A stretch of 64,000 nt of DNA from Bilabrum cf. latius. Taxonomy: Eukaryota. The notes under the pieces were generated by a model. The model was given only the letters and a program-made list of their open reading frames with translations, searched no databases and was not told where the DNA came from. The translations under genes and the position numbers were made by a program. The stretch spans positions 868,001 to 932,000 of the forward strand of contig OZ237745.1 of assembly GCA_965178125.1 (NCBI GenBank), in the 5' to 3' direction. Of the stretch, positions 20,859-25,224 are shown in pieces; the stretch's first letter is position 1, and every line of letters starts with the position of its first letter.

Positions 20859-23800
20859 TCACTGCCTGGAATGGCTGGTGATGGTGTCAGCTGCCTCGAT
20901 CGCAAGCGCCTCGGCGAGCGTACCGGCGACGTCCCGCCGCCTCTTATCCGAGCGTCGCCCCCTCTTCTTTGGCACCTTTTCCTTTTTCTATCCCTGTTTA
21001 CCGCCGTTTTGAGCACCTCCAGCCTTCGCCCCGGTCCCTGCCCTCAACTTCTTCTTCTTCAGGGCGGGCTCTTCCTCCTCCTGCACCACCTTCTCCTCCG
21101 CCTCCTCCTCCTCCACTCTCGGTGCTGACCCCCGGAAGAGCTCGTCAAGCGGGTCGGTGCCTAGGTACTCAACCACGCCCATGCCCAGTGGCCTCTTTGC
21201 CTGCTTCTGGAGGGAGGCACCGCCTTCCTCCTCACTTTCAGTACCGCTAGCACTGGCACTGGCACTGCCGCTGCCGCTGCCATAATCGCTATCGGTTGAG
21301 TCCAGGCCAGAGAGGCCGGCAAGAATCGCATCCACGGCGTCTACAGGATCCGCGTCTGGCATCGGTGCAGACCCGGACTAGACACTCGCAACGGAACCTG
21401 AAGACACTTGAAAATCAGGTGAAGGGGCCAGCAGGGCTCCCAGAAGGGAATCAGCGTCATCGGATGCCACTTGGTGCAAGGAGCCGGCGCCACCGTTCCC
21501 TGCAGCAGCGCCGCTTCCTCTAGCGCTAGGCTGTTTCTAGTTGTCGACCTTTGCAGTTGCATCGTTTGCATCCTTCTCCTTCTTGGACTTGACATCATTC
21601 CGCCTTCTGTCTCGGCCCGTCTGACGAGAAACCTTGCCGGCGTCCTCGTGCCACGATTCGAAACCAGTGCCGCCACCTCCGTCCTTCTTGTTGCCGCCTG
21701 CAGCCTTTTCACTGGCGGCTTTCTTGCCGGGAGCTGGACTGTCCGCCTTGCTAGGCTTTTCTGGAGTCGTTTTCCCTGTCGCCTTTGCCTTTGCCTGAGC
21801 GGCCTTGGCAGCCATTGCGTTCTTTGGGAACGCTAGGACCCCCGCTTTCATCGCTAGGTGTCGGTTGAGCTTGAAGCTCCTGTCCGGCGCGATGTCGACC
21901 ACCATGGTGATGATCTCCGTGCCAACCTCCGGATTGTACAGGCCAGAGTTCCTCAGCGCCAGGTATCCGGTGGGCAGGTTGTTGCTGGGCCAGTCCTCGA
22001 AGGAACCGGCCCTGGGGCTGGACTCGCTGTCCGCCTCCTTGCTCACCGCACCGGTGACCTTGACAAAGACGCCAAACTCCTGCAGGCTGGTGATCCTGCC
22101 GCGGACGAGCGAACCCGGGACGCACTCGAACTGCGTCTTGGCGAGCGGCTTCTCCTCGTCATCTGACCCAGTGCCGCCCGCCCCCTGCTCTTGCGCCTGC
22201 GCCTGCGCCTCGGCCACCTTCCACGCGTTCATGGTAGGGTCATTCCTGGGATCCACCCCTAGGTCTGGTATGAGCTCGCGAATGCTTGGGGCCGGTGACC
22301 TTCCCCCCGTCGACCCGTCACTGGCTTGGGTCTTGCTCGCCGTCAAGGCTTCCTGCTTCTGCTTGGCAGGCTCTGAAAGAAACGGTATGCCAGTTGGAAG
22401 GCTGCTCGCATCGGGTGCGCTTGGCGGAACGTACGGCCCAGGCGATCCGCTCGAGTCGACGACTGCCCCCTGGGTGCCAGTGGCGCTGGCAGTGGCGCTG
22501 CTGCTGGCCTGCTGGGTGCCGGCCGCTCTAGCATGCTGGAACGGCACATCGGGCGAACCAACGATACCAAGTGCTCCTACGTGATCAGGGGAAGGCAATA
22601 GAACCAGCTCTTCCACGAGACGCTTCGCGAGATCGAGCCCAAGCTAGTCGCGAGAGAAAATCTGCAAGTAGTCGGTATCTCCGTAGAAGCTGAGCTAGCT
22701 GTTTGTCTCCCTCTCAATCCTGCGCAGGTTCCGTGCTCCAGGCCCGACCACCTGCCCTCGCTTCGACTGCGGCACCATGAGCAGATCGATCCTCGGCGCC
22801 GTGTCCCGGAGCCCCTCCTTGGGCGCCTGGATCGTCTGCTTCATGCGGTCCAGGAGCTCTTTCCTGGCGGCCCGCGCCCGCCACACGCCCGATTCGAGGA
22901 TCTCCAACGGGATTCCAGGCAGCTTCAAGTCGAGCTGCACGGCAGTCACCCCGTGGATCGTACCCGCTATCTTGAAGTCCATGTCGCCGCAGTGGTCCTC
23001 CAAGCCCAAGATGTCCGTAAGCAGCAAGGCTTTCTTGCCGCTTGGCACGGGCCTCAGGTCGTCTGACTCAGCTGCAGACCGGTCCGAATCACCAGCAGCT
23101 TCCGTCGGTTCGCTTGCGTTCCGGGCTCGATACGAGCCGTCGGAGCCCCAAGCACCCTGCTCCAGCTTGCCCAGCTCTGGCGTGCTCACCATCCCGATGC
23201 TGATGCCAGCCACGTGCTCCTTGAGAGGCACCCCTGCATCCATCAGGGCCACCGACGCCCCGCACACAGTGGCCATGGAGCTGGATCCATCCGATCCAGA
23301 GATCTCTGAGGTGACTCTGACAGTGTATGGGAATTCCTCGGGGCGCGGCATCACCGGAGCAACGGCCTTCTGCGCGAGCGCGCCATGCCCAACCATCCGT
23401 CTGTTGATGCCTCCCACTCGGCCCACTTCATTCACGCTGTACGGAGGAAACTCGTAGTGAAGCATGAAGGCTTTGGCACTGGGCTCCACGGGAGCCAACG
23501 GGTTGCGCCTCGCGTTGCTCAGCTGCCACATGGACAGGGGACCCAGGGTGGTGGTGCACAGCGCCTGGGTGGCACCCCGCGCAAATAGAGAGGACCCGTG
23601 CACGACGGGAATGACTTCGTTTTCGCACTGCAGCTGCCTGATATGCATGGAGCTTCGCCCGTCCGGTCTCCCAGACGTCGCTTTGCCAAGGTCATACCCG
23701 GCTTGCCGCGCCTCAAGGTTCGAGTCAATGGACACTGGAACGACAGGAGGCTTGGGCTCGCTGAGCAGATCAGAGAGCTCTGGCAAGCCTCCTTGCGAGT

Positions 23801-25224
23801 CAGAGTCGCTGCTGCCGCGCGAGCTCGATCTCACGGTTCCTCCGTCTTTTGCTGACCTGGCAAGCCTCGCAATCTCGTCGCTCCCAGGCGCGACGGCATC
23901 GTGCACGGACTGGGGCACAAGCGTGCGGATGGCTGAGGCCTTCGGGCTCAGCTAGACATAGTTGGACAGGATGGAGTCTCGCAGCGCGTCCTCCAGCACC
24001 GAAGACGCGGCTGCCACAATCATTGCGTGCGGTCGGTCGGAGAAATCGGCCTTTAGGCGCTCGATGCACTCAGCCTGCAGCTTGCCTTGCATGGCGGACC
24101 GCTACTGCTTCGACTCCATGCCGGAGCTGTAGCCCTTCCTGGCTTTCGCGTACGCAAACGCCGCAGCCGCAGATTTGAGATCCGAGTCGGGCGCCAGCGT
24201 CTCCCATTCGCGCTTGGGGCGGCCCACCAGACTCGCCAGCTCCCTCTAAAGGTCACACTGGGCCTTGAGAGCGGCCTGGCCTGCCCTCATCGCCGCGATC
24301 AGCTGGTGCTCGGGAACTTGCTCCCCGGCCACCTCGAGCATGAGCGTCCTGGTTTCTGTGCCTGCGTACAGCACGTCCAGCACGGATGCTTCCTGCTCCT
24401 CCCTCGAGGGGTTGAGGACGGGCCCGCCGTCTACCCAGCCAATGTGCACGGCGGCTGCGGGGCCATGCCACGGGATGTCGGACACCGCAAGGGCCGCAGA
24501 AGCGGCGGCGATGCTTACCTGTGGGGATAGTATATGGTGAGGAGAAGGCGGTCAGGTAGGGTCACAGGGGCGGGGCGTTGAGATAGGAAGGCGCGGTTGC
24601 GGTTGGGTCTTGCTGCCAGCGAGCTGGTGACTCTGACCACGGCTGCTAAAGTGCAGCGGCTGTCGTGATGAAAGTGGGCCTTATGAGCCGGCAAGCGTGG
24701 CATCTCACGGTATCTGGTGGAGCATCCCTATCAATTGAGGTGACTGAGCAAATGATCTGAGTCTCCGTCGAGTAGCCTTTCGGAAACAAGGGCCGCAGGG
24801 TCCGATCGATCACCCTGGCACCTAATATTTCGTGATCTGTGTTGCCTCCCTCTCGCCCATTGAATGTTTGAGGAATGACTCCCTAGGCAAACGATTTTTC
24901 TCGGTACTCAACCTGGAGCGGCAGAAAGTCGCTCTCCCCGATGCCGTGCTCGCTGACAACAGACGTGAGGACGGACGTATCCCCGTAGCGAGCAAGAACG
25001 ACTCCATCCGCAAGCGGGCCGATTTTTCCAGTTTCTAGTGATAGCTGCCTCCCGCAATAATCCGTCGAAACCTTTCTAGGGGTCTGAACTGACGAAGACT
25101 TCGTGCGAGCGCTCAGCTTATGGCATGGTGCTGGCTACACTGGCAATCTTCTGCATGTTTTAGCTAGTGACTGGCTGATCAAGGCATTCCATTTTCGCAA
25201 TCGTCCTTCATTTAGCCGACGCAT
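20859..25224 (-). CDS. PNPT1: Polyribonucleotide nucleotidyltransferase (PNPase), likely mitochondrial, ~1391 aa with long C-terminal extension
   Basis: Exons 25224-24709 and 24518-20859. Motifs LETGKIGPLADG, FLPLQVEYREK, RVIDRTLRPLFP, SDIPWHGP, VHGSSLFARG, HYEFPPYSVNEVG, SDGSSSMATVCG, LTDILGLEDHCGDMDFKIAG, then KH and S1 domains. Arg-rich N-terminus resembles a transit peptide. Ten in-frame TAG; ends TGA. Confidence 0.95.

Follow-up and report, generated by a model that had tools for sequence, protein, structure and literature searches.

Probable use of UAG as a glutamine codon in the GC-rich nuclear genome of a stramenopile near Cafeteria

Nuclear genetic codes in which UAG alone has changed from stop to glutamine correspond to NCBI translation table 15. 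Such UAG-only codes are described in Iotanema spirale (Fornicata), Protocruzia tuzeti, and two phyllopharyngean ciliate lineages (Panek et al. 2017, PMC5304391; McGowan et al. 2024, PMC11687900), and the same accounts list codes in which both UAG and UAA specify glutamine (UAR-to-Gln; NCBI table 6) in many ciliates, Hexamita, Streblomastix, ulvophycean green algae, and Amoeboaphelidium. They also describe other meanings of UAG, including leucine in the rhizarian exLh, serine in Scotinosphaera, and glutamate in the ciliate PL0344, in which UAA is lysine. Here we describe a 64,000-nucleotide (nt) window of DNA from Bilabrum cf. latius (assembly GCA_965178125.1, contig OZ237745.1, positions 868,001 to 932,000 of the forward strand; all coordinates below are relative to the window), in which a PNPase gene, like every other long gene of the window, contains in-frame TAG codons.

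The window very probably represents GC-rich, intron-poor nuclear DNA of a heterotrophic stramenopile near the marine flagellate Cafeteria, in which UAG specifies an amino acid, most probably glutamine, and translation ends at UGA (mostly) and UAA. This resembles the Iotanema-type code, in which UAG is glutamine, UAA and UGA are stops, and the assignment likewise comes from conserved columns, as the account of I. spirale has it (PMC5304391). As in a table 15 type code, the window has TAG inside intact conserved genes, glutamine-rich columns at TAG positions, and TAA and TGA out of frame and as terminators. It differs in belonging to another supergroup lineage, a stramenopile beside Cafeteria, and in its GC-rich genome, with GC ranging from 0.54 to 0.75 in 2-kb windows. 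The primary terminator reported for I. spirale is UAA (PMC5304391), whereas UGA is the main terminator here (9 versus 2). The UAR-to-Gln codes are also stop-to-glutamine changes, presumably through tRNA-Gln variants (PMC11687900; PMC5304391), but TAA is a sense codon in them as well, whereas in the window TAA occurs in frame at none of 13,462 codons and terminates two genes, unlike table 6. As described, exLh, Scotinosphaera, and PL0344 share with the window the decoupling of UAG and UAA (PMC5304391; PMC11687900), but the residues differ: leucine and serine are absent from both of the conserved columns discussed below, and leucine, serine, and glutamate all score under glutamine on curated profiles.

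With TAG read as sense, the PNPase gene is intact, comprising two exons on the minus strand with an ATG at 25224, a single intron, 1,391 codons of which 10 are UAG read as glutamine, and a UGA end (TGA at 20859 to 20861). Its coding sequence contains exactly 10 in-frame TAG triplets and is free of in-frame TAA and TGA. Read with the standard code, the locus is fragmented, the longest frames having 418 and 368 codons; with TAG as sense it resolves into two frames, 24562 to 25287 and 20859 to 24551, both with RNase PH matches. Exon 1 (24709 to 25224, minus strand, ATG at 25224 to 25222; 172 codons; Pfam RNase_PH, E = 4.5e-20) encodes the bulk of the first RNase PH domain, preceded by a basic N-terminal presequence whose composition suggests organelle targeting. 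It carries TAG at amino acid (aa) 30 (25135 to 25137), in the presequence, and at aa 114 (24883 to 24885) in the context EKSFA(TAG)GVIP; aa numbers refer to the spliced 1,391-residue protein. The spliceosomal intron (24519 to 24708, minus strand; 190 nt, GTGAGA...CACAG), which was read from the sequence, moves the reading frame and contains an eleventh TAG (24646 to 24648) in the frame of exon 1. The predicted junction, ...DAPPDT/VSIAAASAAL..., is gapless in alignment to the Cafeteria protein.

Exon 2 (20859 to 24518, minus strand) has 1,219 codons (24518 to 20862) plus the TGA and matches Pfam RNase_PH (8.3e-22), RNase_PH_C (3.6e-10), and KH_1 (9.1e-05). Its product runs from RNase_PH_C through a helical linker to the second RNase PH domain, which carries two insertions, followed by KH and a long C-terminal extension of low complexity. 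Its eight TAG codons lie at aa 263 (24246 to 24248, context CDL(TAG)RELASLVGRPK), aa 311 (24102 to 24104), aa 361 (23952 to 23954, a lineage-specific insertion), aa 780 (22695 to 22697), aa 797 (22644 to 22646), and, within the unalignable C-terminal extension, aa 1166 (21537 to 21539), aa 1219 (21378 to 21380), and aa 1349 (20988 to 20990). The domain set of two RNase_PH, RNase_PH_C, and KH_1 is that of a PNPase-type architecture, and Pfam reports no S1 domain at E<=0.001. The same domain order is found in organellar PNPases of oomycetes, plants, and animals and in the Cafeteria roenbergensis PNPase (P0004, 1,099 aa), which is 43% identical over 95% of exon 2. The window protein differs in its greater length (1,391 aa), its insertions in the linker and second RNase PH domain, its low-complexity tail, and its 10 TAG codons. 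The initial annotation, made from the DNA letters, had named four of these codons (24883, 24246, 22695, and 22644) and counted 10 in a gene free of frameshifts. All four are in place on the minus strand in the PNPase frame and the count is right once the two-exon model is made, but the two homologous parts do lie in different frames, a shift that the GT...AG intron explains.

The sense use of TAG is a property of the window, and of the genome, and not a peculiarity of PNPase. Eleven long frames, delimited by TAA and TGA and totaling 13,462 codons, contain 76 in-frame TAG and no TAA or TGA. Given how these frames are delimited, the real evidence is their length and not the absence of TAA and TGA: off-frame TAA and TGA together occur at 1.9% per codon, so that frames of thousands of codons free of them are coding. 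Among the 26,902 off-frame triplets of the same frames are 212 TAG, 82 TAA, and 440 TGA, making TAG 29% of the stop triplets; at that share, finding TAG at every one of the 76 in-frame stop positions has a probability of about 10^-41. With TAG as sense, the window has frames of 3,240 (21 TAG), 1,926 (7), 1,656 (3), 1,540 (14), 1,230 (8), 1,159 (7), 1,088 (7), 898 (1), 751 (8), and 609 (6) codons, against a longest frame of 1,217 codons under the standard code, and the domains in the frames so opened include RNase PH/KH, phosphorylase, TTL, Pyr_redox_2, RCC1/TIG, RING, and FtsX.

Ten stops in one gene would, under the standard code, be the mark of a pseudogene, and the PNPase gene and its neighbors could be taken as genes decaying through nonsense mutations. 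Decay would yield all three stops together with frameshifts; here a single stop triplet type occurs, there are no frameshifts across as many as 3,240 codons, all long genes are affected, and domain scores are normal. Chance and mutational decay are thus excluded, the probability left to decay being negligible, and the initial annotation was right to doubt it.

The two other stop triplets behave as terminators. Nine of the eleven frames end in TGA and two in TAA, with C-termini consistent with those of homologues for IMP4 and RING. When TAA is also read as sense, only short upstream or downstream tails are gained and the supported genes are not lengthened. No frame of the window requires TAG as a terminator, and the last TAG lies 40 to 61 codons ahead of the stop in five of them. 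Both TAA-ending genes (FtsX-like, 11185 to 11187, and RING, 59863 to 59865) have an in-frame TGA behind the TAA, at +1 and +5 codons, which may be chance or may provide a back-up stop if TAA is sometimes read through. We also observe that the TAG share of glutamine-family codons is uneven, at 1/29 in the phosphorylase gene, 3/56 in the FtsX gene, 21/150 in the 3,240-codon giant gene, and 8/30 in the gene at 54726 to 56981, as expected if TAG is a disfavored synonymous codon in highly expressed genes or those rich in GC at third codon positions. Two further TAG triplets in the Brix frame (25450 to 26496) are left uncounted, being intronic as judged by eye.

It might also be that the mRNA differs from the DNA presented here, either through U-to-C editing to CAG or through C-to-T sequencing or assembly errors at CAG codons. 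Both would likewise place glutamine at every TAG, and editing and recoding cannot be separated from DNA alone. Nonspecific C-to-T change would, however, also convert CAA to TAA and CGA to TGA. The eleven frames hold 151 in-frame CAA codons, some of which would have become TAA, and neither product occurs in 13,462 codons; an artifact of this kind is therefore excluded. The same signature is present at four open reading frame (ORF) ends of an independently assembled relative, and we know of no precedent for nuclear genes in which U-to-C editing targets specific sites amounting to about 0.5% of codons. We regard a discrepant mRNA as highly improbable.

The identity of the residue was addressed by aligning residues 1 to 900 of the spliced PNPase, with X at each TAG, to the best 120 homologues. 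Among the seven alignable TAG columns only that of aa 263 is dominated by glutamine, with Q in 84 of 120 homologues, I in 36, and nothing else; it is Q in all of the 30 closest homologues. Q is also present in Cafeteria P0004 and in P0001, a 93%-identical ORF fragment of a near relative. This is the sole glutamine-diagnostic TAG of PNPase, and its column was correctly picked out as glutamine-favored at the outset. It had been placed in a helix of the first RNase PH domain and lies instead outside that domain, at residue 102 in the numbering of the exon 2 frame (ORF numbering), nine residues past the RNase_PH_C match (ORF 30 to 93). The remaining columns are tolerant. The column at aa 30 is a gap in 87 of the 120, and that at aa 114 holds A 64, V 28, T 11, gap 6, S 5, F 4, and Q 2, with A or T in the 30 closest. 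The AQG.IP motif of plant PNPases that had been invoked for aa 114 does exist, but glutamine in this column is limited to the liverwort Riccia fluitans (YAQGKIP) and one EukProt sequence. Variable residues are seen at aa 311 (S 36, E 34, A 26, D 16, Q 3, L 2, T 2, K 1), where the near relative has E and Cafeteria A, and aa 361 is mostly a gap (gap 114, E 3, D 1, P 1, Q 1), with E in the near relative. The codons at aa 780 (ORF residue 619) and aa 797 (ORF residue 636) both fall inside the KH_1 match (ORF 591 to 647), as had been proposed, but their columns are variable and not glutamine-favored: the residues listed among the 120 are T 43, S 22, E 15, Q 14, A 8, K 7, R 5, and H 2 at aa 780, and P 42, E 27, G 19, A 9, D 8, Q 5, K 3, and N 2 at aa 797, the latter mostly E in the 30 closest. 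Only one of the four codons initially named thus carries the argument for glutamine, even as the conclusion that TAG is sense, and probably glutamine, is supported. Cafeteria has ordinary residues at the PNPase TAG columns, with Q, A, E, A, and E at five of the sites. In a profile of 119 PNPase homologues, log-odds summed over the five TAG in match columns are 4.03 nats for Q, 1.67 for E, 1.47 for K, and 0.97 for A, so that PNPase alone gives glutamine only a modest lead over glutamate. The case for glutamine rests largely on two further genes, those for a glycogen phosphorylase and for a protein with RCC1-like repeats.

The glycogen/starch phosphorylase (GP) gene (17258 to 19954, minus strand; Pfam Phosphorylase, E = 9.1e-295) has a single in-frame TAG, at 19079 to 19081 (minus strand) in the context KNAIXLNDTHPALAVPEL, which aligns to Q in Arabidopsis PHS2 and in yeast GP chains. 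This is the strongest single column for glutamine: the 150 best representatives from a scan covering 1.84 billion proteins have Q 116, H 32, and gap 2, and the nearest of them (81% identity) has Q. The residues E, K, R, S, L, and Y are absent from both the GP column (0/148) and PNPase aa 263 (0/120), H is absent from the latter (0/120), and glutamine is the sole residue common to the two columns. The giant gene (41847 to 51569, minus strand; 3,240 codons, 21 TAG, TGA stop) encodes RCC1-like and IPT/TIG regions and a C-terminal multipass membrane region; its RCC1-like domain contains three TAG, for which Q is joint best in PF25390 and best in PF13540. The RCC1 region has no PDB match at 0.001, and for the three-TAG IPT/TIG piece none of 21 translations gives a Pfam family match at E<=1e-6. 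TAG of the TTL gene aligns in PDB chains to V, to nothing, and to L, which is not decisive. A classifier using the residues flanking TAG (positions ±1 and ±2), which ranked R, L, S, E, and Q in that order, placed held-out true glutamine sets first in only 9 of 40 trials and was dropped, as it has no power.

Curated profiles were also scored, with TAG replaced in turn by X and by every one of the 20 residues, on NCBIfam and Pfam models; all else being constant, score differences reflect the TAG columns alone. PNPase exon 2 scores on TIGR03591 are Q 465.4, K 464.3, R 464.1, E 462.3, X 459.5, and W 455.1 bits, and those of the exon 1 piece are A 129.9, V 129.6, Q 128.8, and E 128.4 bits, the exon pieces being scored separately on a model whose cut-off of 525 is for the whole protein. 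Q is also top for exon 2 on NF008805 and TIGR02696. The GP piece has Q 328.1, H 327.7, K 326.3, and E 325.8 bits on TIGR02093, with Q top on NF011561 (246.2 bits) and H top on NF011562 (270.0 bits versus Q 266.4). The RCC1-like piece has Q and H at 70.3, R at 68.8, and E at 66.9 bits on PF25390 and Q top at 33.6 (R 30.8) on PF13540, and scores are close for Pyr_redox_2 on PF07992 (D 69.4, Q 69.2, E 68.9) and TTL on PF03133 (K 91.6, Q 91.3, E 91.2). Summed over six models, one per piece and with at most 14 TAG columns, Q reaches 1153.1 bits, followed by H 1147.0, K 1146.7, R 1145.8, E 1143.5, Y 1133.9, and L 1130.5; the deficits relative to Q are 6.1 for H, 6.4 for K, 9.6 for E, 11.0 for S, 19.2 for Y, and 22.6 for L. 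The profiles favor glutamine in a manner that is consistent but not overwhelming.

Several points weigh against glutamine. Most TAG codons lie in variable columns in which glutamine is not the commonest residue, the A/V/T column of PNPase aa 114 included. Dominance of TAG columns by leucine, tyrosine, or glutamate had been named at the outset as evidence against glutamine; leucine and tyrosine do not dominate, but glutamate is the top residue of the PNPase profile at aa 311, 780, and 797 and is what the closest relatives mostly carry at aa 797. The near relative has Q, E, E, Q, and K at five window TAG sites, matching glutamine at two of the five. The six-model margin over the runner-up is small for so few columns, and Q is beaten once each by A (PNPase exon 1), D (PF07992), K (PF03133), and H (NF011562). 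HERC2 carries K/R at an RCC1 TAG position, in a PDB match found only at E<=10, and the exon 1 TAG of IMP4 aligns to Q in human but to D in Chaetomium and yeast, neither comparison being decisive. The giant protein has no match at E<=0.001 to proteins of similar length among 7,999 candidates scored, leaving 18 of its 21 TAG without a homologous column; its five matches to shorter proteins are three fragments from the near relative and two weak ones with a TRP C-terminal domain. Finally, ARAGORN and Rfam find no tRNA with a CUA anticodon in the window, the sole RNA gene found being a tRNA-Met (CAT) at 3044 to 3116 (plus strand), just upstream of a satellite array.

UAG is glutamate in peritrich ciliates and Blastocrithidia, and a sense meaning other than glutamine, most plausibly glutamate, lysine, or histidine, draws on several of these points: the prominence of E at aa 311, 780, and 797 and in the closest relatives, the E at two and K at one of the five sites in the near relative, the scores of K and R within 1.3 bits of Q on TIGR03591, and those of H, which equals Q on PF25390 and exceeds it on NF011562. 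It is unlikely nonetheless, as against it stand the absence of E, K, R, S, L, and Y from both conserved columns, that of H from aa 263, and the lower six-model sums of E, K, H, L, and Y. A looser arrangement would leave TAG with neither a tRNA of its own nor a single set meaning: poorly recognized by eRF1, it would be read as a near-cognate mixture (Gln, Lys, Tyr, Glu), or it would be stop or sense by context, as in Condylostoma and Blastocrithidia. This would suit the mixed residues seen in the near relative and the overrepresentation of TAG at variable columns that tolerate change, as well as the last TAG of the giant gene, which lies 40 codons ahead of the TGA and at which the relative's ORF call stops. 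However, TAG is as frequent in frame (76/13,462; 0.56%) as off frame (212/26,902; 0.79%), it occupies two strictly conserved glutamine positions of essential enzymes, no gene of the window needs it as a terminator, and it is distributed over whole genes without avoiding their ends. We consider such loose reading very unlikely.

The near relative is represented by four ORF fragments (P0001 and P0121 to P0123) at 87 to 93% identity, called under the standard code. The ends of these ORFs match a TAG (giant gene aa 3201), a CAG (aa 656), and two TCG codons (aa 1808 and, in PNPase exon 2, aa 478) in the window. All are TAG or one step away from it, so that the relative's frames are probably interrupted by TAG and the relative probably shares the code. 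Its public ORF calls have GTG starts and come as pieces of 113 to 468 residues, which is the expected output of a standard-code prokaryotic gene caller on a genome with TAG as sense. The residues of the relative and of Cafeteria fit an origin of TAG by single first-position changes (from CAG, GAG, or AAG) at tolerant sites, a spread that would not in itself separate glutamine from glutamate.

The best named PNPase matches, on which the lineage assignment rests, are Cafeteria roenbergensis and oomycetes. In a FastTree phylogeny of this one gene (LG+gamma; 716 columns from 70 sequences, excluding P0001), the window PNPase branches as the sister of the Cafeteria clade (SH-like support, 0.984), and that clade is nested in a stramenopile-dominated group (0.993). 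Our literature survey found no stramenopile nuclear code change, judging by titles and abstract openings and with most subscription journals outside its coverage. We raise, tentatively and with somewhat less than even confidence, the suggestion that this is the first nuclear code change in stramenopiles, an independent and recent move of UAG to glutamine after the split from Cafeteria that is also present in at least one relative (about 90% identity).

By analogy with the known codes (Panek et al. 2017, PMC5304391), a tRNA with a CUA anticodon would pair with UAG and not UAA; as that account describes it, CUA is the only anticodon to do so and is one mutation away from that of tRNA-Gln(CUG). 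This tRNA would probably derive from a duplicated tRNA-Gln(CUG) gene and be charged by GlnRS, with an eRF1 whose recognition of UAG is weakened (PMC5304391). No eRF1 gene is present among the window frames scanned. As the genome is GC-rich and UGA is its main terminator, UAG should not have become rare by AT pressure, which would argue against simple codon capture and for an ambiguous intermediate or a change in tRNA or eRF1.

The window has other features. The PNPase gene (minus strand, ATG 25224) and the IMP4/Brix gene (plus strand, ATG 25338) are divergently oriented with 113 bp between them (25225 to 25337), which suggests a common bidirectional promoter; IMP4 apparently has at least two short introns and one TAG in exon 1. 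Five long minus-strand genes follow in a row with short spacers at 36970 to 63342 (Pyr_redox_2, the giant gene, two unknowns, and RING), and among them are small plus-strand genes, a sybindin/TRAPPC4-like frame (59108 to 59590) and a P-loop GTPase-like frame starting at 52065. A hexanucleotide microsatellite (31508 to 31600, plus strand), with (VQ)n as its translation in one frame and (GA)n in a second, is located where the frames 26698 to 32478 and 31508 to 34774 overlap, which makes it uncertain where the first gene ends and the TTL gene begins. GC-rich satellite arrays occupy 3403 to 8201 (period 42/76 nt, about 124 copies) and 8250 to 10526 (period 99/146 nt, about 23 copies). The frames within them (3403 to 10526) were rejected as genes, as they have no Pfam match and are open in several frames on both strands because the DNA is without A and T.

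Nuclear code changes are rare, and those giving UAG and UAA separate meanings are rarer still. The use of UAG for glutamine proposed here would add to an already recognized type of code variant, from a lineage for which we find no reported case in the literature. Standard-code annotation would break nearly every long gene of this genome or of related metagenome contigs, as the ORF calls of the near relative illustrate, and gene calling with TAG as glutamine is advised. If true, the finding would provide another independent origin beside the standard-code Cafeteria, a close pair in which the requirements for tRNA-Gln, GlnRS, and eRF1 can be compared, and it would show whether GC content matters.

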